Below, in pieces: positions 5,639 through 45,655 of a DNA stretch of 64,000 nucleotides. The position numbers were made by a program, and so were the translations under genes. The DNA is from Escherichia coli (lineage in GTDB: Bacteria > Pseudomonadota > Gammaproteobacteria > Enterobacterales > Enterobacteriaceae), in assembly GCF_046105845.1 (NCBI RefSeq), contig NZ_CP151004.1; one strand, 5' to 3'. Positions within the stretch are counted from its first letter, which is position 1, and every line of letters begins with the position of its first letter. Under the pieces are notes generated by a model. The model saw only the letters and a program-made list of their open reading frames with translations. It searched no databases and was not told the origin of the DNA.

Positions 5639-6253
5639 TTATTCTTCAATCGCTAACAATTGCAATGAACCACGGCTAAAATCCGCCAGCTTTGCGGAAA
5701 ATTCAGCCACTTTCGCCGCCGGAAGCGCCACCCGCAGCAGAACGAATGCCTGATAATCACTGTTGATAATTTTGCCGTCACACTGCCCCAGCAACGCTTC
5801 AATGCCGGTTAACTGACTATATTCACATTGCAAAGTATATTCGGTTAATGGCGTCTTGCGTTGGGTCGTTAGCTGGCGCAGCGCCTGATTCACTCCGCCG
5901 CCATACGCTTTCACTAACCCACCGGTACCAAGCAATATGCCGCCGTAGTAGCGCACCACCACAGCGGTAATTTCCCCGACGCCGCTGCCCATTAGTTGGG
6001 CGAGCATCGGTTTACCGGCCGTTCCCGCCGGTTCCCCGTCGTCAGAGAAACCGAGCTGTTGAGAATCATCCGGCGCACCCGCCACCCACGCCACGCAATG
6101 GTGGCGGGCATCGGGGTGTTCTGCCCGCACCGATTCAACAAACGCTTTCGCCGCCTCAACGCCATCGGTATGCGCCAACATCGTTATGAAGCGGCTCTTT
6201 TTGATCTCTTCAACGACCGTGACTGGTGCCGCAGGAATTAACCAGCTTTCCAT
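5639..6253 (-). CDS. yigZ: IMPACT-family protein YigZ
   Basis: Translation [22 protein letters not shown]... recognised; start placed at second Met of the track ORF to give 204 aa; start overlaps pepQ stop (ATGA). Confidence 0.88.
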   Translation of the reverse strand: MESWLIPAAPVTVVEEIKKSRFITMLAHTDGVEAAKAFVESVRAEHPDARHHCVAWVAGAPDDSQQLGFSDDGEPAGTAGKPMLAQLMGSGVGEITAVVVRYYGGILLGTGGLVKAYGGGVNQALRQLTTQRKTPLTEYTLQCEYSQLTGIEALLGQCDGKIINSDYQAFVLLRVALPAAKVAEFSAKLADFSRGSLQLLAIEE

Positions 6254-7584
6254 CACGCCAGTTTCAGATCCCGGGTCATGTTTTCCACGTTGTTTTCGTG
6301 GATCACCACGTTGTCTTCGATACGAATGCCGCCGAACGGTTTCAGTGCTTCAATTTTCTGCCAGTTGAAGTGCTTGCTGAACTGCCCTTCACGCCACGGT
6401 GCCAGCAGCGATTCAATGAAGTAAATACCCGGTTCGATGGTTAACACCATGCCCGGCTGGAGAATACGGGTGCAGCGCAGGTACGGATATTTTGCCGGTG
6501 CCGCGAGGTGCGTACCGCTATCATCTTGCATAAAGCCAGCTACGTCATGCACCTGCAGGCCCAGCGGATGACCGATACCGTGCGGCATAAACGGTCCGGT
6601 GAGATCGTTTTCGACCATCGCTTCTTCACTCATATCGGTGATGATTTGATGTTTACGCAGCAATTTGGCGATGCGCTGATGGAACTGGATGTGGTAATCC
6701 ACATAGCTGACGCCTGCTTTCATGGTGGCGATCAGCGCCAGTTGTTCATCATTTACGTCTTTCACCAGCTGTGCGTAGTCGTTATCGCTTTTTGCCGACC
6801 AGGTACGGGTCAGGTCAGCCGCATAGCCGTTATATTCGGCCCCGGCATCCAGCAGGAAGCTGCGCATCTCTTCCGGTGCCTGATGGTCCAGTTTGGTGTA
6901 ATGCAACACCGCAGCGTGTTCGTTAAGCGCCACAATGTTGCTGTAAGGTACGTCGGTATCACGATGACCGGTCGCGGTCAGATAGGCAATGTTGATATCG
7001 AACTCGCTCATGCCAGAACGGAACGCTTCTTCTGCCGCGCGATGACCGTTGACCGCCATTTTCTGCGCTTCACGCATACAGGCCAGTTCGTACTCGGTTT
7101 TGAAGGAGCGATAGTAATGCAGGTAGTCGATCACCCCTTTCGGGTTGATATTGCTGGCCTCAATACCCAGTTGCAGCGCACGTTCCGGCACCGGACCGAT
7201 ATAACCGATATTGCCGCGCGCAGCAGTCAACAGACTACCAATGCCATCGGCTTTCGGCAGCGCGATCACTTCCACGTCTTCAGTCCAGAAAGAGGTCGGC
7301 AGCGGTTCGACGTTGTGCCAGTAATCAACCGGCAGATAGAACCACAGTTTCGGCTTGTTCACGCCATCCACCAGCAGCCAGCAGTTTGGCACCTGAGTTA
7401 CCGGCACCCACGCTTTGAATTGCGGGTTCACTTTAAACGGATAGGGATGATCGTCGAGAAAAACGTTGAACAGTTCGCCGGAGTGAATAAGTAACGCATC
7501 CAGCTTGAAGCGCGCCAGCGCATCGCGAGTCCGTTCTTGTAAGGTAGCTATATGATTTTTATAGAGTGAGGCCAGTGATTCCAT
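6253..7584 (-). CDS. pepQ: Xaa-Pro dipeptidase (prolidase)
   Basis: 443-aa ORF recognised as PepQ (M24 metallopeptidase); length matches reference. Confidence 0.93.
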
Positions 7585-34366: not shown

Positions 34367-35257
34367 ATGGATGCAAAACAAACGCGGCAGGGCGTATTAC
34401 TCGCTCTTGCCGCTTATTTTATTTGGGGTATTGCGCCAGCGTACTTCAAGCTGATTTACTACGTGCCCGCCGATGAGATCCTGACGCATCGCGTGATCTG
34501 GTCGTTTTTCTTTATGGTGGTGCTGATGAGCATTTGCCGCCAGTGGTCCTATTTAAAAACGCTGATTCAGACGCCACAGAAAATTTTTATGCTGGCAGTC
34601 TCTGCCGTGCTGATTGGTGGCAACTGGCTACTGTTTATCTGGGCGGTGAACAATCACCATATGCTGGAAGCGAGCCTTGGTTACTTTATTAACCCGCTGG
34701 TGAACATTGTGCTGGGGATGATTTTCCTCGGCGAGCGATTCCGCCGGATGCAATGGCTGGCGGTGATTCTGGCAATATGTGGCGTGTTGGTTCAGTTGTG
34801 GACTTTTGGTTCACTGCCGATTATCGCGCTGGGGCTGGCGTTTAGTTTTGCCTTCTACGGCCTGGTACGCAAGAAGATTGCTGTTGAAGCGCAAACCGGC
34901 ATGTTAATCGAAACTATGTGGTTGCTGCCCGTGGCGGCGATTTACCTGTTTGCTATTGCCGACAGCTCAACCAGCCATATGGGGCAAAACCCGATGTCAC
35001 TGAATTTACTGCTGATCGCCGCCGGGATTGTCACTACCGTACCGCTGTTGTGTTTTACTGCGGCTGCGACACGCCTGCGTCTCTCAACGTTAGGCTTTTT
35101 TCAGTACATTGGCCCGACGCTGATGTTCCTGCTGGCTGTGACGTTTTATGGTGAAAAACCGGGTGCCGATAAGATGGTGACCTTCGCCTTTATTTGGGTG
35201 GCGCTGGCAATTTTTGTGATGGATGCGATTTATACGCAGCGTAGAACGTCCAAATAA
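34367..35257 (+). CDS. rarD: DMT-family permease RarD
   Basis: 296-aa membrane ORF recognised as RarD. Confidence 0.92.
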   Translation: MDAKQTRQGVLLALAAYFIWGIAPAYFKLIYYVPADEILTHRVIWSFFFMVVLMSICRQWSYLKTLIQTPQKIFMLAVSAVLIGGNWLLFIWAVNNHHMLEASLGYFINPLVNIVLGMIFLGERFRRMQWLAVILAICGVLVQLWTFGSLPIIALGLAFSFAFYGLVRKKIAVEAQTGMLIETMWLLPVAAIYLFAIADSSTSHMGQNPMSLNLLLIAAGIVTTVPLLCFTAAATRLRLSTLGFFQYIGPTLMFLLAVTFYGEKPGADKMVTFAFIWVALAIFVMDAIYTQRRTSK

Positions 35258-35315
35258 AAAATAAATATATTCTGAAAAAATATGCCGACTCTTGCATGAG
35301 AGTGGGCATATTGCC

Positions 35316-35693
35316 ATGCTGACAGGAGACTCACATAAGAAAGGCAGAATTTCCAGACGTCGTTGTATATTTTCATTTGCTTTAATAAATTTCATTTTTG
35401 CCTTTCTTATTATCTTTTTTAACGATGGGGACGCAGGTTTTCTTGTTATTGTCTCTACCAACGCACTCCATTATCTCGTCATCAACATAAATTGCCAACG
35501 ACTCCGTGATAGTGGTTTCATATATATAAAAACTTATGTTTTTGGTACATTAGCAGTATATATCATCTCTATCATCACAATGATAGCCGAACATTTTGAT
35601 TGTTCAGGCAATGGTTCGATGATTTTTTTGATTTGTTATTTTTCCACTTTCAGTATGCTAATGCTTGCACCTACTGATTCATCAAAACAATAG
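35316..35693 (+). CDS. yigG: small inner membrane protein YigG
   Basis: AT-rich ORF encoding a hydrophobic protein ([35 protein letters not shown]...); first ATG used because the track start at 35292 is a TTG. Start uncertain. Confidence 0.65.
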
Positions 35694-35706
35694 TTATGGA
35701 GTATTT

Positions 35707-36087
35707 ATGAGTAAGGAATATATGAACGATGGTTCATTAAGTGAAAAATGGAAATACCGATTTAATTTTTATGATCAACATGGCTTTCCTGGATTCTGGG
35801 GGGCAACACCAGAATATAAAGCAGCATTTAAAACATTAAAAGTAAGACAACGATTAACTATTCAAATGAATTTCATTGCTTTCTTCTGTTCCTGGATCTA
35901 TTTATTTGTTCTGGGATTATGGAAAAAAGCAATTATAGTTCTATTACTTGGCATTCTATCTCTATTTGTTGGTGCACTAATTGGCGTTAACATTCTGGGA
36001 ATTGCCGTAGCAGCCTATGTTGCTGTTAACACGAACAAATGGTTTTATGAGAAAGAGGTAAAAGGGTTAAATACCTGGAGCCTTTGA
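35707..36087 (+). CDS. yigF: small inner membrane protein YigF
   Basis: ATG with GGAG ribosome-binding site about 11 nt upstream; 126-aa hydrophobic protein MSKEYMNDGSLSEKWKYRFNFYDQHGFPGFWG... recognised as YigF. Confidence 0.75.
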   Translation: MSKEYMNDGSLSEKWKYRFNFYDQHGFPGFWGATPEYKAAFKTLKVRQRLTIQMNFIAFFCSWIYLFVLGLWKKAIIVLLLGILSLFVGALIGVNILGIAVAAYVAVNTNKWFYEKEVKGLNTWSL

Positions 36088-36093
36088 ATAACA

Positions 36094-36129
36094 GGTGGCT
36101 TAGCCAGGCTAAGCCACCGCCTTCTTTTT
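36094..36129 (+). terminator. hairpin terminator between convergent yigF and corA
   Basis: Stem-loop GGTGGCTTAGCCAGGCTAAGCCACC followed by GCCTTCTTTTT on the + strand; overlaps the corA stop codon. Confidence 0.5.
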
Positions 36130-37078
36130 ACAGCCAGTTCTTGCGCTTAAAGTACAGATACGGTGCCAGGCCCGCGAGGATCATAAAGATAATCGCGCCA
36201 GGGTAGCCGAAACTCCACTTCAGTTCCGGCATAAACTCAAAGTTCATCCCGTAGCTGGAAGCAACCAGCGTTGGCGGCAGGAACACGACGGATACCACCG
36301 AGAAGATTTTGATGATGCGGTTCTGCTCGATGTTGATAAAGCCCATCGCCGCCTGCATCAGGAAGTTCACCTTCTGGAACAGAGATTCGTTATGCGGCAG
36401 CAGGGATTCGATATCTCGCAGGATTTCACGCGCCTGCTCCAGCTGCCCGCCCGGTAAACGCGCCTTACGCACCAGGAAGTTGAGCGCACGCTGGGTATCC
36501 ATCAGACACAGGCGAACTTTCCAGCCGATATCTTCCAGTTCCGCCAGCGTGGAGAGCGCCTCGTCGTACTCATCGCCCTGATGCCCTTCCATAATTACCC
36601 GGCTCAACTGCTCCAGGTCGCTGTAGATATTTTCAATTTCATCTGCCAACTGTTCGATTTTGGTTTCGAACAGATCCAGCAGCAGCTCGTAGGCGTTACC
36701 GTCCACCATTGACTGGCTACGGGCACGCATACGATACAGACGGAATGCAGGCAGTTCACGCTCACGCAGAGTAAACAGACGACCATCACGGATGGTAAAT
36801 GCCACAGTGGAGTTACCGGCGTGATCTTCCGCATCTTCAAAGAAGAAGAAGGAGTGAATATGCAGGCCGTCATCGTCTTCAAAGAAACGTGCCGATGCTT
36901 CGATGTCTTCCAGTTCCGGGCGGGTTGCCAGGCTCTGACCAAGTTCAGATTGTACGCGCAGTCGCTCGTCGTCGTCCGGTTCGACAAGATCAATCCATAC
37001 TGCATTTACAAGGGGTTGTGACTCTTCGACTTCCAGCCGGGTCAGTCGGTTATTTTCCAGTTGAAATGCGCTCAGCAT
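36128..37078 (-). CDS. corA: magnesium/cobalt/nickel transporter CorA
   Basis: Translation [31 protein letters not shown]... ending ...[40 protein letters not shown] (316 aa) recognised as CorA, including GMN motif. Confidence 0.94.
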
Positions 37079-37447
37079 GACCGGGACTCCCAATGCTTAA
37101 AATATCGGACAGTTCGGTGGGCACACAGAAACAAATTGGGTTTCAGACCATTAAACAGCCTGACTCAGCGCGACGGGAAAAATTGAGGTCGCTGACAACC
37201 GCTAAGGCTATCAGCAAAAAGGGATAGCCTTAGGAGTTGATCCTGGATGACAGGATAGTGAGCCAGTATCTACTGGGTGTGTCCAAGGCGAATGTCCTCT
37301 TAGAGTGATCGTGCGCGCATGTTACGCCAGCAAAATTTTGCCGTCAACACGCAACAGAACACCACAGAACAATAGTTGAACTTCGCGCTTTTTGGTACTC
37401 GTCAAGGTCGCTAACAGGATAAAAAAATCCCACATCCAGGACCTATA

Positions 37448-38212
37448 ATGGCGCATCGGCTACTCATTGGTAAAGGAATGATCACCTTGAATCTCAAACG
37501 GATTTTTCTCACCCTCACCTTACTTCCCTTATTTGCTGTTGCCGCTGATGATTGCGCACTCTCAGATCCGGCGCTGACCGTACAGGCGTATACCGTTAAT
37601 CCTCAAACAGAGCGGGTGAAAATGTACTGGCAAAAAGCCAATGGCGAAGCGTGGGGAACGTTACATGCTCTGCTGGCGGATATTAATAGTCAGGGTCAGG
37701 TGCAGATGGCAATGAACGGCGGCATCTATGATGAAAGCTATGCGCCGCTCGGTTTGTACATCGAAAACGGTCAGCAGAAGGTGGCGTTAAATCTCGCTTC
37801 AGGTGAAGGGAATTTCTTTATTCGTCCTGGCGGCGTGTTTTATGTCGCGGGAGATAAAGTCGGCATCGTTCGTCTGGATGCCTTTAAAACCAGTAAAGAG
37901 ATTCAGTTTGCGGTGCAGTCAGGGCCAATGTTATTAGAAAACGGCGTAATTAATCCGCGTATTCATCCCAACGTCGCCTCACGTAAAATTCGTAACGGTG
38001 TTGGGATTAATAAACAAGGGAACGCCGTGTTTTTGTTGAGCCAGCAGGCGACAAATTTTTATGATTTTGCCTGTTATGCCAAAGCGAAACTGAACGTTGA
38101 GCAGTTGCTTTATCTTGATGGCACAATTTCACATATTTATATGAAAGGCGGGGCAATCCCGTGGCAACGCTATCCTTTTGTCACCATGATTTCCGTCGAG
38201 CGGAAAGGTTAA
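37448..38212 (+). CDS. yigE: DUF2233-family (phosphodiester glycosidase-like) protein YigE, predicted exported
   Basis: 254-aa ORF divergent from corA, with signal-peptide-like N-terminus; recognised as YigE. Domain assignment from memory. Confidence 0.8.
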   Translation: MAHRLLIGKGMITLNLKRIFLTLTLLPLFAVAADDCALSDPALTVQAYTVNPQTERVKMYWQKANGEAWGTLHALLADINSQGQVQMAMNGGIYDESYAPLGLYIENGQQKVALNLASGEGNFFIRPGGVFYVAGDKVGIVRLDAFKTSKEIQFAVQSGPMLLENGVINPRIHPNVASRKIRNGVGINKQGNAVFLLSQQATNFYDFACYAKAKLNVEQLLYLDGTISHIYMKGGAIPWQRYPFVTMISVERKG

Positions 38213-38294
38213 GCATTATACACTCGAGGAGGCCAGACAAACTGGGACTGGCTACACAGCTGGAAAATCATCAGATAAATGAAGGGAAACAAAA

Positions 38295-39197
38295 ATGAAA
38301 AAAACGCTCGCAACGTTATTTTTATTAACGTGTCTGGGATCATCATCCGCCTATGCGGATAACGCTTTGATTTTACAAACTGATTTTAGCCTGAAAGATG
38401 GTGCCGTCTCGGCGATGAAAGGGGTCGCATTCGGCGTTGACCATAATCTTAAAATCTTTGATTTAACACACGAAATTCCACCGTATAACATCTGGGAAGG
38501 CGCTTATCGCCTGTATCAGACTGCCAGTTACTGGCCGCAAGGTTCGGTGTTTGTTAGCGTGGTCGATCCGGGCGTAGGCACTGACCGTAAATCGGTAGTG
38601 CTGAAAACCAAAAACGGTCAGTACTTCGTTTCACCAGATAACGGTACGCTCACTTTGGTGGCACAAACTCTGGGTATTGATAGCGTCCGGGAAATCGACG
38701 AAAAAGCTAACCGCCTGAAAGGTTCTGAAAAGTCATATACCTTCCACGGTCGTGACGTGTATGCCTACACCGGTGCGCGTCTGGCTTCCGGGGCGATTAC
38801 GTTCGAACAGGTGGGGCCAGAGCTTCCTGCAAAAGTTGTCGAACTTTCTTATCAGAAAGCAAAAGCAACAAAAGGTGAAGTGAAGGGCAATATCCCGATT
38901 CTCGATATTCAGTACGGCAACGTCTGGAGCAATATCAGCGACGAGTTGCTGAATCAGGCAGGAATCAAACTCAACGACACGTTGTGTGTGACCATTTCCG
39001 AAGGTTCCCAGCAAAAATACGCAGGGAAAATGCCGTATGTCGCAAGTTTCGGCGATGTGCCGGAAGGCCAGCCGATGGTGTATCTGAACAGCTTATTGAA
39101 TGTTTCCGTGGCGCTGAATATGGATAATTTCGCGCAGAAACATCAGGTTGCATCTGGTGCTGACTGGAATATTGATGTGAAGAAGTGCGCTAAGTAA
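38295..39197 (+). CDS. SAM hydroxide adenosyltransferase family protein (DUF62; fluorinase/chlorinase-like fold) with N-terminal signal peptide
   Basis: 300-aa ORF with GAAGGGA ribosome-binding site 8 nt upstream of ATG. Signal peptide MKKTLATLFLLTCLGSSSAYA|DN, then family motifs LILQTDFSLKDGAVSAMKGV and FHGRDVYAY. Not part of the K-12 gene order as I recall it. Confidence 0.75.
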   Translation: MKKTLATLFLLTCLGSSSAYADNALILQTDFSLKDGAVSAMKGVAFGVDHNLKIFDLTHEIPPYNIWEGAYRLYQTASYWPQGSVFVSVVDPGVGTDRKSVVLKTKNGQYFVSPDNGTLTLVAQTLGIDSVREIDEKANRLKGSEKSYTFHGRDVYAYTGARLASGAITFEQVGPELPAKVVELSYQKAKATKGEVKGNIPILDIQYGNVWSNISDELLNQAGIKLNDTLCVTISEGSQQKYAGKMPYVASFGDVPEGQPMVYLNSLLNVSVALNMDNFAQKHQVASGADWNIDVKKCAK

Positions 39198-39206
39198 GGG
39201 GCTGAT

Positions 39207-39237
39207 GCGGAATGCGGTGTGGCGCACCGCATTCCGC
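39207..39237. other. perfect 13-bp inverted repeat (stem-loop) between convergent DUF62 gene and uvrD
   Basis: GCGGAATGCGGTG-tggcg-CACCGCATTCCGC; no flanking T-run on either strand. Confidence 0.6.
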
Positions 39238-39241
39238 AACG

Positions 39242-41404
39242 TCACACCGTCTCCAACCGGGCGTAAGCCGCCACCAGCCATTTAATACCCTGGCCCTGGA
39301 ACGCCACCTGCAAACGGCTATGCTCACCGCTGCCTTCCATATTGACGATGGTGCCTTCACCAAACTTAGCGTGGCGTACGCGCTGGCCGAGCTTGTAGCT
39401 GCTGTCGTTCTCGACCATCGGCGTACCCATCCGTTGATGGCTGACCGGGCGGCTTACCGTGGCGCGCAGGCGCACCTCTTCCACACACTCTTCCGGCAGC
39501 TCGCCGATAAAGCGCGACGGGCGATGGTAAACCTCTTTGCCATACAAACGGCGAGTTTCCGCGTAGGTCAGCGTCAGTTTCTGCATCGCGCGGGTTACGC
39601 CAACGTAGGCCAGACGGCGTTCTTCTTCCAGACGTCCGCCTTCATCCAGCGACATCTGGCTTGGGAACATGCCTTCTTCCATACCAACGATAAACACCTG
39701 CGGGAACTCCAGCCCTTTCGCCGAGTGTAGCGTCATCAACTGCACCGCATCCTGCCAGGTATCCGCCTGCCCCTCGCCCGCTTCCAGTGCCGCATGGGAG
39801 AGGAACGCCTGCAGCGGCATTAAATCTTCGTCTTCTTCGTTGTAGCTGAACTGGCGCGTCGCCGTCACCAGTTCCTCTAAGTTTTCGATACGCGTCTGTC
39901 CTTTTTCGCCCTTCTCCTGCTCGTACATGGTGCGCAGGCCGGAGTCTTTAATGACCCGGTCAGTCTGTACATGCAGCGGCATATCGGCAGTTTCCTGCGC
40001 TAAGGCGTCGATCAGTTCCATAAACCGTTGCAAGGCACTGGCAGCACGTCCGGCGAGGGCTTTTTCCTGCAACAGTTCACGACATGCCTGCCAGAGTGTT
40101 AACTGACGATCGCGCGATGTCTGACGTACCACGTCCAGCGTCCGGTCACCAATACCCCGCGTTGGCGTATTCACCACGCGCTCAAAGGCCGCGTCGTCGT
40201 TGCGGTTGGCAATCAGGCGCAGATATGAGAGCGCGTCTTTGATTTCCTGACGTTCGAAGAAGCGCATCCCGCCGTAAATACGGTACGGCATACTCGCCTG
40301 CAACAGTGCTTCTTCCAGCACGCGCGACTGGGCGTTGCTGCGGTAGAGAATGGCGCACTCGGCGAGCGCCCCGCCGTTGTCCTGCCAGGTCTTGATACGG
40401 TTAACCACAAAACGCGCTTCGTCGAGTTCGTTAAAAGCGCAATAGAGGGAAATCGGCTCACCGTCCGCGCCATCGGTCCACAGTTTTTTACCCAGACGCC
40501 CGTTGTTGTTTTCAATCAGGGCGTTAGCGGCGCTCAGAATATTGCTGGTAGAGCGGTAGTTTTGCTCCAGACGAATAGTTTCGGCACCGGGGAAATCATT
40601 AAGGAAACGCTGAATATTCTCCACCTGCGCCCCGCGCCAGCCGTAGATTGACTGGTCGTCATCGCCAACGATCATCACTTTGCCGGTGTCGCCCGCCAGC
40701 AGGCGGATCCACGCGTACTGAATGTTGTTGGTATCCTGGAATTCGTCCACCAGGATGTTAGTAAAACGTTCGCGGTAGTGTTGCAGGATATGCGGCTTGT
40801 TAAGCCACAACTCGTGAGCACGTAGCAGCAGCTCGGCGAAGTCCACCAGGCCCGCGCGGTCACACGCTTCCTGATACGCCTGATACACCTTCTGCCAGGT
40901 CTGCTCCACCGGATTACCGTAGCTTTGAATATGATGTGGACGCAGGCCTTCATCTTTCTGGCTGTTGATGTACCACATTGCCTGGCGCGGCGGCCACTGC
41001 TTCTCGTCGAGGTTCATCGCCTTGATTAGGCGTTTGAGCAGGCGTAGCTGGTCCTCGCTGTCGAGGATCTGAAAATCCTGCGGCAGATTGGCGTCCATAT
41101 GGTGCGCACGCAGCAGACGGTGCGCCAGCCCGTGGAAGGTGCCGACCCACATGCCGCCCTGGCTGGTGCCCATCAGCTGCCCGATACGATGACGCATCTC
41201 CGCCGCCGCTTTGTTGGTAAACGTTACCGCCATAATCGAGTATGGCGAGCAGTTTTCCACGCTCATCAGCCAGGCGATACGATGCACCAATACGCGCGTC
41301 TTACCACTGCCCGCGCCCGCCAGCACCAGAAGGTTGCTGCGTGGCGCGGCCACCGCTTCGCGCTGTTTGTCATTAAGGCTGTCGAGCAGGTAAGAAACGT
41401 CCAT
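39242..41404 (-). CDS. uvrD: DNA helicase II (UvrD)
   Basis: Translation from MDVSYLLDSLNDKQREAVAAPRSNLLVLAGAGSGKTRVLVHRIAWL... (720 aa) recognised as UvrD; track ORF is over-extended upstream by 62 codons. Confidence 0.94.
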   Translation of the reverse strand: MDVSYLLDSLNDKQREAVAAPRSNLLVLAGAGSGKTRVLVHRIAWLMSVENCSPYSIMAVTFTNKAAAEMRHRIGQLMGTSQGGMWVGTFHGLAHRLLRAHHMDANLPQDFQILDSEDQLRLLKRLIKAMNLDEKQWPPRQAMWYINSQKDEGLRPHHIQSYGNPVEQTWQKVYQAYQEACDRAGLVDFAELLLRAHELWLNKPHILQHYRERFTNILVDEFQDTNNIQYAWIRLLAGDTGKVMIVGDDDQSIYGWRGAQVENIQRFLNDFPGAETIRLEQNYRSTSNILSAANALIENNNGRLGKKLWTDGADGEPISLYCAFNELDEARFVVNRIKTWQDNGGALAECAILYRSNAQSRVLEEALLQASMPYRIYGGMRFFERQEIKDALSYLRLIANRNDDAAFERVVNTPTRGIGDRTLDVVRQTSRDRQLTLWQACRELLQEKALAGRAASALQRFMELIDALAQETADMPLHVQTDRVIKDSGLRTMYEQEKGEKGQTRIENLEELVTATRQFSYNEEDEDLMPLQAFLSHAALEAGEGQADTWQDAVQLMTLHSAKGLEFPQVFIVGMEEGMFPSQMSLDEGGRLEEERRLAYVGVTRAMQKLTLTYAETRRLYGKEVYHRPSRFIGELPEECVEEVRLRATVSRPVSHQRMGTPMVENDSSYKLGQRVRHAKFGEGTIVNMEGSGEHSRLQVAFQGQGIKWLVAAYARLETV

Positions 41405-41462
41405 TGGCACCGCCGCGTAAAAATAGGTTGGGCGGAGAAGCGCAACGCCCTCCGCCAAAAAG

Positions 41463-41478
41463 CTGGGTATATATACAG
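41463..41478 (-). promoter_or_regulatory. LexA (SOS) box in uvrD promoter
   Basis: Reverse complement CTGTATATATACCCAG matches the CTGT-N8-ACAG LexA consensus; about 60 bp upstream of the uvrD start, just downstream of the yigB stop. Confidence 0.65.
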
Positions 41479-41487
41479 ATTTGCTGA

Positions 41488-42204
41488 TTATATCAGCGAG
41501 GTCAGAGATGCCAACCGGGAAATTTCCAGATGCGGGAGTAAACGGCTGTCCCAGGTTTGCATCAGATCGCCATTTTCCGGTCTGATCCAACAGGCCTGCA
41601 TTCCGCTGCGAATTGCCCCACCCACGTCAGTGGTGAGATCATCCCCGACATGTAAGATCTCGCCGATCGGCACGTTGAGTTTTTCCGCCGCCAGGAAGTA
41701 CATATCGCTGAACGGTTTTGAGCGCCCGTGCGGGCCAGCACGCAGCACAAACTCAAAATAATCCCCCAAACCAAACAGTTCCGGCTGGGCGTTACCGTTG
41801 GTGATCGCCACCAGCGGCCATTTCTTCGCCAGCTGTTTTAAGGTGTCGTGGGTTTGCTGCGGGACATCGATTCGGCTGCGCCATTTGGCAAAGTTGATCA
41901 TTGCTGCGTGTGCGCCTGCACTGGCTTCTTCGGCACTCAGCCCGGCGTCGAGCATGGCTTGTTCAATCGAACGAAAACGCCAGCGCGTCACGTCGTGATA
42001 AATCTCGGGTTCCGCTTCCCGTACCGCCTGGCGCAGGCGTTGCAGATCTTCATTCTGGAAGCTGCGCAGCGCCGGATGATAATTTTGCACAAAGGTAAGC
42101 GCCTCTCGCTCGGTGCGCAAAATCACCGGACGGTTATCGTAAAGGGTATCATCCAGGTCAAAGGTGAGCGCCGAGATGCGCCTCAAAGGCCGGTAAAAAC
42201 GCAT
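41488..42204 (-). CDS. yigB: HAD-family phosphatase YigB (5-amino-6-(5-phospho-D-ribitylamino)uracil phosphatase)
   Basis: 238-aa ORF with HAD motifs (DLDDTL near N-terminus) recognised as YigB. Confidence 0.9.
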
Positions 42205-43100
42205 TATTTCCCCCGTTTGGCGCGTGGATGCGCCGCATCGTACACCGAGGCAAGGTGTTGAAAATCAAGATGAGTATAGATTTGCGTGGTGGAGAGGTTG
42301 GCATGACCCAGCAGCTCCTGCACACCACGAAGTTCGCCGCTCGACTCCAGCATATGCGTAGCGAACGAGTGACGTAATTTATGCGGGTGAACGTGATTAT
42401 TCAGCCCTTGTTTGATGCCCCATTCGGCAAAGCGTTTCTGCACATTACGCGCGGAGATACGCTTGCCCAGTTTCGACAGAAAAAGCGCGTCGTCTTCGCT
42501 ACCAAACAGGTCGCGCAAATCAAGCCAGTGCTCAATCCACGCCACAGCGTTGCGACCAATCGGCAGGCGGCGCTCTTTGCTGCCTTTTCCCATCACCCAC
42601 ACTTCACCAGACTCCAGGTCGAGGTGTTTGATATCGAGCCCCACCAGTTCGGAAAGACGCAGACCCGCGCCGTACATCACTTCCAGCATTGCCCGATCGC
42701 GCACGGCGAGGGGATCGTTGATATCAATATCCAGCAGCCGATTCATATCATCGACGTCGATGTTTTTCGGCAGATGACGCGGCGCTTTCGGTGCCGAAAC
42801 ACCTTTCGCCGGGTTGGCTTTGAGTTCGTTCTGGCTGACCAGCCAGTCAAAAAAGCTACGTAGCGCAGAAAGCCGTAACGCCAGACTTGCAGCTCCCAGC
42901 CCTTTACGGCGACTGCGTACAGCGAAATTGCGCACCATCGTCACATCACATTGCTGCCAGCTTTGCAGGCCGTTTTCACTGGCAAAATTGATGATCGCCT
43001 CAAGCTGACGCTGATAGTTAAGCAGGGTTATCGGGCTAAGCTGACGCTCCACGCTCAGATAACGTAGGTAGCGTTCTACATCGGTGTGTAAATCGGTCAT
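42204..43100 (-). CDS. xerC: tyrosine site-specific recombinase XerC (chromosome dimer resolution)
   Basis: 298-aa ORF with tyrosine recombinase motifs (...[40 protein letters not shown]...) recognised as XerC; conserved dapF-yigA-xerC-yigB context. Confidence 0.94.
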
Positions 43101-43804
43101 ACGCGTTCAATCCAACGCTCCAGAAGCTCCGGCAACATCAGCGCAATTTCATGAAGTAACTGCGTTCCCTGCCCTTGTTGATAGTGACTGGCATCGCGAC
43201 TAGTAAACAGCACAACACCCAAATCAGCATCGCTTCCCAGCATCGACATCGCCACCGATCCCACCGCTTTCGCTTCCGGTAGCACCACCAGAAGCTCCGG
43301 TCCGTTAAGCGGCCCCAGATAGTGCTGTTCCTGCCCCAGACGCTGAATACGCAGCGGTTCGAAAGACTGACGGCTTAATGCCAGATAAGTGTGGTTCGAC
43401 GGCGCACCTAAGCGCCAGCGATCCGGAAACAGGCGCAGACTCGCACCTGCCAGCCCTAAATCACGCGCCCAGCGATGGAAACGCATCAGCATATCGTCGA
43501 GACTACTGGCGGCGGTGAGACTGCGCTGCAGGTAGAGTAGACGATAAAACAGGCCTTCGTTGGCGATTGCCTGTTCCATCAACAGCGCCATGTTCTCTTC
43601 CAGAACATGAATATGATTACGTGCGCGGGCCATGTGCCACTCGACCAACGAAACGGTGCCGCGTACCGGATGCGGCACACGTATCGCTTCTACTGCGCGC
43701 GCATTGCGGATAAAAAACTCAGGATTTTTAATCAGATAATCGACAACCGCCCGGTCATCAAGCTCCGTGAGTGTTTCCTGCAGTTCTTCCCCTGGTTGCT
43801 TCAT
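43097..43804 (-). CDS. yigA: DUF484-family protein YigA
   Basis: 235-aa ORF recognised as YigA; overlaps dapF stop and xerC start (operon). Confidence 0.9.
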
Positions 43805-44625
43805 AGATGAATAAATCCGTCGTAGACATGTACCGCCGGGCCAGTCATATATAACGGGTGACCCGGACCTTTCCAGGCGATATCAAGACGACCGCCAGGG
43901 AGTTCCACGCGTACTTCTTCGGCCAGCAAACCTTGCTGAATCCCTACCGCCACCGCCGCACACGCGCCGCTGCCGCAGGCCTGGGTTTCTCCTGCCCCAC
44001 GCTCATAAACGCGTAAACGAATATGCTCGCGCTTAACCACTTGCATAAAACCGATATTGGCGCGCTCCGGAAAACGCTCGTGGCTTTCCAGAACAGGACC
44101 AAGCGTTTCTACCGCCGCGGTATCGACATCATCGACCTGAATCACGCAATGCGGATTTCCCATCGACACCACGCCGCATAAGATTGTCTGCTCGGCGGCG
44201 CGCATAATATAGGTCTTTTCCGCTTTGTTAGCGCGAAACGGCACGGCGGAAGGTTCGAAGTTGGGCTCGCCCATGTTTACGCGAACCAGATCATCATCGG
44301 TGACGGTCAGAACCATCCGCCCGTTGGCGGTGCTGACGCGGATATCGCGCTTATTGGTCAGCCCTTTCAGGCGCACAAAACGGGCAAAGCAGCGTGCGCC
44401 GTTGCCGCACTGCGCCACTTCACTGCCATCAGCATTGAAAATGCGATAGTGAAAATCCAGTTCAGGATCATACGGTGGCTCAACCACCAGCAGTTGGTCA
44501 AACCCTACCCCCAGGTGCCGATCCGCCAGGCGACGAATCAGCTCCGGTGAAAAAAAGACATTCTGCGTTACCGCGTCGACGACCATAAAATCGTTGCCAA
44601 GGCCATGCATTTTCGAGAACTGCAT
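43801..44625 (-). CDS. dapF: diaminopimelate epimerase
   Basis: Translation [46 protein letters not shown]... (274 aa) recognised as DapF. Confidence 0.94.
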
Positions 44626-44661
44626 CATTTACTCCAATCACGCGGGTACAGAAACTGACTT

Positions 44662-44865
44662 TTAGTAATTCACCTGGGATGGACCATCGCCAGTGGCGCG
44701 GTCGTTTTTATCCGGCACTGTGGATTGCGTTTGCGTCTCTACCGATTTGGTCGGCGGCGGTGCGTTTTTATCTGCAGGCGGGAAATAGAGCGGACCTTTC
44801 AGACCGCAGCCCGTCAGGCTGAAGAGAGTAAGTAATACAGTGAGTGCCTTAAACACGTTTTTCAT
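44662..44865 (-). CDS. yifL: small lipoprotein YifL
   Basis: 67-aa ORF with lipoprotein signal (LTLFSLTGC lipobox) recognised as YifL. Confidence 0.85.
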   Translation of the reverse strand: MKNVFKALTVLLTLFSLTGCGLKGPLYFPPADKNAPPPTKSVETQTQSTVPDKNDRATGDGPSQVNY

Positions 44866-45053
44866 TATGGATTGCCTGTAAAGTTCATCGCTTTCTGCTT
44901 TCTATCATCGCAGGAGAAGGCGTAAAAGCAAGCGTTTAGCGACTCTTTATGAAGTCTGAAAAATGAGGAAATACTGCGAGTATAACGCTTACACGTGGCG
45001 ATTTATGTTTTGCTGGTAGTTTCGTGATCGTCACCTCGCGCCAGGATGGCTTT

Positions 45054-45287
45054 ATGCACTATCGCAATGTGATTTCTTTGTTGGCTTGTTCGTTGTTTTT
45101 ATCGTCGGCATGGGGATGTCGGCTTGATGAGCCTGAACATAATATTTACCAGAAACAGGGAAAAGGCGTGGTGTATTTGCACCCTTATGAAAAGACCAAT
45201 CTTTCGCTATATAGAGACATTATTATTCCGTTGACAGATGAATCATGCCGGAACGCAGCCGCAGAGGTGCAAACTTTGAAGCCCTGA
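45054..45287 (+). CDS. hypothetical small exported/lipoprotein-like protein (possibly the reference yzcX)
   Basis: 77-codon ORF with AGGA ribosome-binding site about 8 nt upstream of ATG; N-terminus MHYRNVISLLACSLFLSSAWGC resembles a signal/lipoprotein peptide. Real-gene status unverified. Confidence 0.35.
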   Translation: MHYRNVISLLACSLFLSSAWGCRLDEPEHNIYQKQGKGVVYLHPYEKTNLSLYRDIIIPLTDESCRNAAAEVQTLKP

Positions 45288-45334
45288 CCCCATGCCGCTA
45301 TACTGCCGCCATCACTTAAAAACAGGATACAACA

Positions 45335-45655
45335 ATGAACGACAGTGAATTTCATCGCCTGGCTGATCAACTCTGGCTGACCATTGAAGAGCGTCTGGAC
45401 GACTGGGATGGCGATAGCGATATCGACTGCGAAATCAACGGCGGTGTACTGACCATTACCTTTGAGAACGGTAGCAAAATCATTATCAACCGTCAGGAAC
45501 CGCTGCACCAGGTGTGGCTGGCAACCAAACAGGGCGGCTACCATTTTGATATGAAAGGCGATGAGTGGATTTGCGATCGTAGCGGCGAAACCTTCTGGGA
45601 TTTGCTGGAACAGGCGGCAACGCAGCAAGCGGGTGAAACAGTCAGTTTCCGCTAA
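45335..45655 (+). CDS. cyaY: frataxin homologue CyaY
   Basis: 106-aa [59 protein letters not shown]... recognised as CyaY. Confidence 0.94.

Follow-up and report, generated by a model that had tools for sequence, protein, structure and literature searches.

The closest described relatives of the protein reported here are the S-adenosylmethionine (SAM) hydrolases PH0463, MJ1651, 2zbu and StDUF62, and the SAM-dependent halogenases SalL, ClA1/ClA2 and FlA, all of them DUF62 (SAM hydroxide adenosyltransferase, SAM_HAT) proteins. The family is characterized by the motifs PxNGL and IDxxFGN, with ribose and adenine contacts at D16 and N215 (FDAS numbering); its hydrolases are defined by the PH0463 triad D68-R75-H127, and its halogenases by T80/S158 (FDAS) or Y70/G131 (SalL) (PMC4859513). 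What the hydrolases are for is a matter of debate: repair of (R)-SAM in the cytoplasm is the only purpose that has been proposed, and doubts have been expressed that it explains all members (PMC12120602). A further member is encoded between yigE and uvrD in a 64,000-nucleotide stretch of the Escherichia coli chromosome (RefSeq assembly GCF_046105845.1, contig NZ_CP151004.1; hereafter, the window). The open reading frame (ORF), 38295–39197 on the plus strand, specifies 300 amino acid residues from an ATG start, as described in the initial annotation of this DNA, and is the orthologue of Helicobacter pylori HP0709. Its motifs and N-terminus make it very probable that the product is an exported SAM_HAT protein of the hydrolase type. 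The initial annotation was incomplete in three respects: the signal peptide, the choice between hydrolase and halogenase, and the H. pylori orthologue with approximately 91% identity were not noticed or settled. Its statement that no function is established for the family in enterobacteria agrees with our literature search, which found no paper on the subject.

Pfam analysis reveals SAM_HAT_N (PF01887, E = 4.9e-53) at residues 26–174 (38370–38816) and SAM_HAT_C (PF20257, E = 3.9e-18) at residues 198–291 (38886–39167). The family had first been recognized as that of the SAM hydroxide adenosyltransferases, fluorinases and chlorinases by two peptides, LILQTDFSLKDGAVSAMKGV and FHGRDVYAY, which are located at residues 25–44 and 150–158, and the PF01887 match bears this out. 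Against solved structures, phmmer returned 2zbu of Thermotoga maritima (1.3e-43), SalL (1e-35) and PH0463 (1e-33), as well as MJ1651 and the fluorinases; identity to the solved family members is 31–37%. A monomer modeled with AlphaFold2 from alignment A1 (predicted local distance difference test, pLDDT, 92; predicted template modeling score, pTM, 0.87) was matched by Foldseek, with template modeling (TM) scores of 0.80–0.89 and probability 1.0, to 2zbu, SalL (6rz2; TM 0.85), ClA1 (7ccg), PH0463 (2wr8) and FDAS (1rqp), and no unrelated fold scored better than E = 0.01. The model thus resembles the fluorinase, SalL and PH0463, the three comparisons proposed at the outset. Membership in the SAM_HAT superfamily is evident from the Pfam domains, the motifs and the two-domain fold, which pairs an alpha/beta/alpha N-domain with a beta C-domain. 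The best NCBIfam matches are two (R)-SAM hydrolase equivalog models, NF058624 and NF053629, where the scores of 131.5 and 116.9 bits fall below the cut-offs of 350 and 470; the fluorinase model TIGR04507 gives 83.9 bits against a cut-off of 400. Judged by these scores, the protein is not an equivalog of the characterized (R)-SAM hydrolases. The family as a whole comprises 8752 representatives at E ≤ 1e-3. RefSeq already names the E. coli protein “SAM hydrolase/SAM-dependent halogenase family protein”; the name “acetolactate synthase” in UniRef and older GenBank records is a propagated misannotation, a conflict also remarked upon for H. pylori (PMC6090961).

The family motifs are present as P114-D-N-G-T-L and L-D204-I-Q-Y-G-N209, together with D30. 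N116 never varies among 154 relatives, and position 30 is occupied by Asp in all 150 sequences with a residue at that column, the other four having gaps. Alignment by phmmer to 1wu8/2wr8 equates D91, R98 and H151 (codons 38565–38567, 38586–38588 and 38745–38747) residue for residue with D68, R75 and H127 of PH0463; in the 154 close relatives these positions are occupied by Asp in 148, Arg in 141 and His in 128. SalL has Tyr72, Thr79 and Tyr130 there; the position of its Tyr70 is Val89 in the E. coli protein, and that of SalL G131 and FDAS S158 is Gly152. Six of the seven SAM contacts listed for fluorinases (PMC12080486) are retained (D35, Y64, D204, Y207, N209 and F252), including both aspartates that contact the methionine moiety. 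D30, D35, Y64, the PDNG motif and the triad codons all lie in the SAM_HAT_N domain, and LDIQYGN and F252 in SAM_HAT_C. The E. coli protein therefore has in common with the SAM hydrolases both Pfam domains, the fold, the two motifs, the triad and most SAM contacts. With the halogenases it shares the fold, the SAM-binding scaffold and the glycine at the SalL Gly131 position, whereas it possesses the hydrolase triad, lacks SalL Tyr70, FDAS Thr80/Ser158 and the halogenase Arg270, and does not lie in a biosynthetic gene cluster. By its residues, then, this is a hydrolase-type member in which the halogenase configuration is absent. The alignment also reveals highly conserved blocks specific to the subfamily: DGAVSAMKGVAFGV, NIWE.AYRL.QT..YWP and NRL.GSEKSYTFHGRD.

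Unlike the described SAM hydrolases, the E. coli protein has a cleavable-looking signal peptide. Residues 1–21 (38295–38357; MKKTLATLFLLTCLGSSSAYA, followed by DN) exhibit, by inspection, the n-, h- and c-regions of a Sec signal peptide: the basic pair K2K3, a 12-residue hydrophobic core (TLATLFLLTCLG) and the c-region SSSAYA, whose small residues A19-Y-A21 precede D22, with predicted cleavage between AYA and DN. This extension is missing from every solved homologue, the alignment of which begins only at residues 24–28, and Escherichia and H. pylori share a conserved N-terminus over these 21 residues. The ATG at 38295 is the sole start with a good ribosome-binding site; the next in-frame methionine, M41, lies inside the conserved core, past the essential D30. 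The Shine-Dalgarno-like GAAGGGA noted in the initial annotation is found at 38281–38287, its spacing from the ATG being 7 rather than 8 nt, within the approximately 27 bp of upstream sequence that can be aligned with H. pylori (blastn start 38268).

The relatives present a similar picture. In a species-level scan, all of the approximately 80 closest orthologue loci carry a basic-then-hydrophobic extension, of unrelated sequence, before the ALVxQTDFGLKDG core. Orthologues bearing such extensions come from more than 10 phyla, the taxa including Aeromonas, Edwardsiella, Pasteurellaceae, Neisseriales, Bacteroidota, Verrucomicrobiota, Synergistota, Tissierellia (Firmicutes), Fusobacteriota, Thermotogota and Planctomycetota. 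When the 150 best representatives at 50% identity were scored with a Kyte-Doolittle threshold of ≥2.0 over a 10-residue window, 62 had an extension (12 of these with a lipobox), 43 had none, 13 were ambiguous and 32 were fragments; with the ambiguous cases and fragments set aside, 62 of 105 bear a signal. Cys231 and Cys298 (span 38985–39188; codons 38985–38987 and 39186–39188) occur together in 32 of the 154 relatives; Cys231 is never found alone, the C-terminal cysteine is alone in 4 and 118 have neither, although these counts are not phylogenetically independent. The co-varying pair is a candidate disulfide and fits an oxidizing compartment. HP0709 itself has been detected in outer membrane vesicle (OMV) proteomes of H. 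pylori and is seroreactive, which lends slight support to export. The E. coli protein is probably periplasmic.

Our preferred reading, to which we assign about an even chance, is that of a periplasmic adenosine-forming hydrolase acting on extracellular SAM or a close analogue. The precursor would be exported by the Sec pathway and cut after Ala21; the mature protein of 279 residues would adopt the two-domain SAM_HAT fold and presumably form a trimer with active sites at the subunit interfaces, as in its relatives. Asp91-Arg98-His151 would activate water or hydroxide, which would attack C5′ of the substrate in an SN2 reaction; this substrate would be an adenosyl-sulfonium compound, most likely SAM, and the products adenosine and L-methionine. 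Extracellular SAM, or a close 5′-activated adenosine, that cannot be imported would in this way be converted into two compounds that can. Because the enzyme would reside outside the cytoplasm, its task would be other than mending (R)-SAM in that compartment. In this scheme the export itself, assembly into a trimer, the identity of the substrate and a function in salvage are inferred. E. coli is not known to possess a SAM importer, and H. pylori relies on methionine from outside and on purine salvage. The exported enterobacterial hydrolases UshA, CpdB, AphA and RNase I turn non-transportable nucleotide derivatives into importable nucleosides. They would be analogous to the proposed enzyme in function only: there is no kinship in sequence or fold, and the reaction would be cleavage of the C5′–S bond by SN2 rather than hydrolysis of a phosphoester.

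A number of results weigh against this proposal. The halogenase residue that binds the methionine carboxylate, Arg270, is replaced by Leu267. The scores fall far short of the cut-offs set for (R)-SAM hydrolase equivalogs, and the substrate may therefore differ from that of the characterized enzymes. Close relatives that have no such peptide (P0128 and P0129; 51% identity) are intermingled with the exported ones, so that export is not a clean clade character. OMV proteomes hold many cytoplasmic proteins as well, the list in question including ribosomal proteins. Lastly, clustering of all ORFs in 85 loci found no neighbor conserved across phyla, and genomic context thus provides no real support for a pathway.

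The first two of these points are those on which the best surviving alternative draws, namely, that the protein is an exported hydrolase whose natural substrate is not SAM. Decarboxylated SAM, a nucleoside antibiotic of the 5′-O-sulfamoyl-adenosine type or adenosylcobalamin might be processed instead, in detoxification or cofactor metabolism. The conserved blocks peculiar to the subfamily would also be accommodated, as would the fusion partners found in relatives, which are varied extracytoplasmic hydrolases (Y_phosphatase3, alpha/beta hydrolase and M15 peptidase), and an unknown physiological role has been argued for some DUF62 enzymes (PMC12120602). Nevertheless, the aspartates that hold the methionine amino group are conserved, as are the adenine and ribose contacts, and none of the alternative compounds has direct support. 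The arginine is likewise missing from the cytoplasmic homologue of T. maritima (DSA), and so appears to be halogenase-specific. We regard a substrate other than SAM as possible, with a probability well short of that of the SAM hydrolase we favor.

A lower probability still, amounting to an outside chance, is given to an ordinary cytoplasmic (R)-SAM hydrolase involved in repair, comparable to StDUF62, MJ1651 and the Saci/Hvo SAMH enzymes, with the N-terminus representing a start-site artefact or a non-functional signal. Repair is the sole role shown biochemically for hydrolase-type DUF62 proteins, the best NCBIfam models are of this kind and the triad is intact. Repair of (R)-SAM implies, however, an enzyme located in the cytoplasm, and would make no sense in the periplasm, where the signal-peptide-like N-terminus would direct this one. 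Against this reading stand the single well-supported start codon, the conservation of the first 21 residues as far as H. pylori, the position of M41 beyond D30, the signal-like extensions of unrelated sequence in all close orthologues, some of them with lipoboxes, the cysteine pair, and scores well short of the two equivalog cut-offs. A SAM-dependent chlorinase making 5′-chloro-5′-deoxyadenosine in a chloride-rich setting, as implied by the automatic HP0709 name “adenosyl-chloride synthase / salL” and similar Prokka-style names in H. pylori papers, would share the SalL fold and explain Gly152, but is scarcely credible given the complete hydrolase triad in place of the three SalL residues, Val89 at the Tyr70 position, the low TIGR04507 score, the finding that triad-bearing DUF62 hydrolases show no halogenation (PMC4859513, PMC12120602) and the lack of downstream pathway genes nearby.

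Relatives with secretion signals cannot carry out cytoplasmic (R)-SAM repair, and they therefore point to a second, extracytoplasmic role in the family. The signal-bearing set includes HP0709 and the one family member that E. coli and Shigella were found to have at this locus. As far as we could find, the export signal common to a large group of relatives is a new observation, as are the two-state polymorphism of an old gene in E. coli and the transfer between Escherichia and Helicobacter described below; the family assignment was already known from RefSeq.

In E. coli K-12 MG1655, the convergent genes yigE and uvrD are separated by 146 bp that contain no gene, an absence that the initial annotation had expected. 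Aligned by blastn, the K-12 locus and the window are homologous precisely as far as the yigE stop codon (38212), and again from 39216. The strain-variable segment (38213–39215; 1003 bp) consists of the gene, an 82-bp leader and 18 bp downstream, and its place is taken in K-12 by an unrelated spacer of 120 bp containing a repetitive extragenic palindromic (REP) sequence, in which no gene remnant was found at a word size of 7. Across 5426 complete E. coli genomes, 2413 have the gene, as a single chromosomal copy, and 3012 have the K-12-type empty junction. Presence and absence are thus a two-allele polymorphism at one site, the two states covering essentially all genomes, and the view that this is strain-variable content in an otherwise syntenic core holds. 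Query coverage is at least 80% in 2412 of the 2413 carriers, and one pseudogene, a frameshifted copy in one genome, was found. The exact protein sequence (38295–39194) occurs on at least 1000 public contigs. Among the carriers are O157:H7, ST131 and the BL21-derived strain BAP1, which together with K-12 constitute a natural set of plus and minus strains.

Two GTDB species representatives have the gene at the same site, in yigE–uvrD blocks whose identity to the window is as low as 93.7% and 95%, and Escherichia alleles reach a synonymous divergence (dS) of 0.26–0.30 with a nonsynonymous to synonymous ratio (dN/dS) of 0.03–0.04. Because two divergent lineages have it at the same site, we read the gene as old in the E. 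coli/cryptic-clade lineage, in keeping with the initial opinion that it was not recently acquired. The K-12-type state would be a later deletion. Representatives of E. albertii, E. fergusonii and Salmonella yielded none of the 80 best loci; these extend down to 55% identity, in a scan relying on peptide seed patterns. The dN/dS of 0.03–0.06, from comparisons with other alleles and with the orthologue in H. pylori, marks this as a real gene, one that is under strong purifying selection. Base composition had been judged by eye to resemble the flanks. This is true of yigE (47.1% GC, with 49.0% at third codon positions, GC3), which the gene (47.6%; GC3 51.5%) resembles, and not of uvrD (58.1%; GC3 70.5%); the GC content of the whole window is 52.5%.

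The surrounding rarD–dapF block (34545–45393) is itself only about 96–97% identical to K-12 MG1655, with a dS against K-12 of 0.16 for uvrD and 0.06 for yigE, and the region therefore belongs to a divergent haplotype. The lowest identity of the block, 89%, is found over 400 bp (44945–45344) at the far end of the K-12 alignment.

Outside Escherichia and Shigella the nearest matches are proteins of 300 residues from H. pylori and H. acinonychis with approximately 90% identity, and a single 90%-identity cluster contains 2579 sequences. HP0709 (jhp0648) is approximately 91% identical to the E. coli protein over its full length and 92.7% identical in the mature region, whereas the next relatives (Aeromonas, Edwardsiella, Neisseriales and Pasteurellaceae) do not exceed 76.7% in the mature region. 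It has the same length, a homologous signal peptide and the same cysteine pair, in an unrelated chromosomal setting. Its DNA is 84.5–84.8% identical to the window, with identities of 0.91, 0.96 and 0.67 by codon position, a dS of 0.85, a dN of 0.051 and a dN/dS of 0.06. DNA homology comprises the coding sequence, approximately 27 bp upstream and 5 bp downstream, and goes no further. The H. pylori copy has a GC content of 42.9% and a GC3 of 45%, compared with about 38% GC in its flanks and a GC3 of 30–43% in the neighboring genes. In complete 1.7-Mb H. pylori chromosomes HP0709 lies between uvrA/rsmH-HP0708 on one side and a hom outer membrane protein gene, HP0711 and rpoN on the other; contamination was rejected as the source of these matches, given complete chromosomes with native flanks.

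A simple neighbor-joining tree, drawn without support values, pairs the Helicobacter clade with that of Escherichia as sister groups and places the two amid Gammaproteobacteria (Edwardsiella, Pasteurellaceae, Aeromonas and Thorsellia). The gap in identity across phyla, the nested clade, the confinement of homology to the gene and the chromosomal context on both sides indicate a transfer into the ancestor of H. pylori and H. acinonychis, putatively from an Escherichia-related gammaproteobacterium or from a common unsampled donor. With 85% DNA identity to a gene apparently very widespread in H. pylori, this would be an unusually clear transfer between phyla whose common habitat is the human gut and stomach. 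A literature search that did not take in PMC7736106 and PMC2692205, either of which might mention signal peptides, found nothing on the origin or export of HP0709 or on its relationship to Escherichia.

HP0709 has nevertheless appeared in several reports. It is a match with “conflicting annotations” in a genome-wide association study (GWAS) of gastric cancer (PMC6090961), it has been reported as a serological marker and OMV protein, and it was upregulated in H. pylori biofilm, under the name “salL”, together with the methionine transporter gene metI. It also serves as a landmark beside the hom locus, and the HP0709/hom site is reported to be a hotspot of prophage integration (PMC11321410). Downstream of HP0709 (gene 6001–6903 in loci L002–L005), a hom-family outer membrane protein gene and a Fic-domain gene are each present or absent according to strain. 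HP0709 alleles are associated with gastric-cancer risk, and the kinship with the Escherichia gene offers a functional handle on this uncharacterized GWAS locus. More speculatively, exported DUF62 enzymes may constitute a widespread, unrecognized class that harvests SAM from the environment or host as methionine and adenosine, one gene of which moved from an enterobacterium of the Escherichia lineage to the ancestor of H. pylori and H. acinonychis and became fixed as HP0709; taken as a whole, we consider this unlikely at present.

The gene neighborhoods of the orthologues are varied. Twenty named adjacent genes on the same strand are heterogeneous (among them glgA, xseA, sbcB, fldB, tpx, dnaJ, ligA, an RND pump, TonB receptors, an NCS1 permease and GGDEF), and a conserved operon partner was rejected, no neighbor being kept beyond a genus. 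In several Aeromonas species a gene for a secreted RNase T2/RNase I-like protein, recognized by eye from the motifs HGLWPQ...HEWEKHGTC, lies just downstream of the orthologue (L009, 6625–7455; L020, 5964–6620; L017, 5268–5900); in other Aeromonas a protein of approximately 1015 residues is inserted between the two. An NCS1 nucleobase permease adjoins the orthologue in a Synergistaceae metagenome-assembled genome (MAG), and TonB-dependent receptors do so in two Bacteroidota. These neighbors, together with the co-upregulation of metI, are faint hints of scavenging. Fusions also occur: in two Fervidobacterium MAG proteins of 650–665 residues (L072, 4938–6887; L079, 4878–6872) a signal peptide is combined with SAM_HAT_N, a pair of SAM_HAT_C domains and, at the C-terminus, a Y_phosphatase3 domain with HCVEGKDRAG (CX5R), and in further relatives the fusion partner is an alpha/beta hydrolase or an M15 D-Ala-D-Ala dipeptidase domain. 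A role in defense was rejected, PADLOC matching neither the protein nor YigE.

At the E. coli locus no sigma-70 consensus was found in the 82-bp spacer between yigE and the gene, which is possibly transcribed together with yigE or from an unrecognized promoter. YigE (37448–38212; DUF2233, “phosphodiester glycosidase family”) also has a signal-peptide-like N-terminus and has no NCBIfam family match; the two adjacent same-strand genes thus both appear to encode exported hydrolases. A functional link was rejected, the adjacency being limited to Escherichia and H. pylori having the gene without yigE. A strong hairpin without a T-run lies at 39200–39243, between the gene and the convergent uvrD, with a predicted RNA folding energy of −30.5 kcal/mol (z = −5.8; none of 200 shuffles equally stable). 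The scan for consensus terminators did not call it, there being no T-run. K-12 keeps its distal, uvrD-proximal half, with the REP element on the other side. The ORF list gives uvrD (39242–41590, minus strand) as 782 residues from a TTG at 41590; the K-12 start aligns to the ATG at 41404 (720 residues), and the longer form is an artefact of ORF calling.

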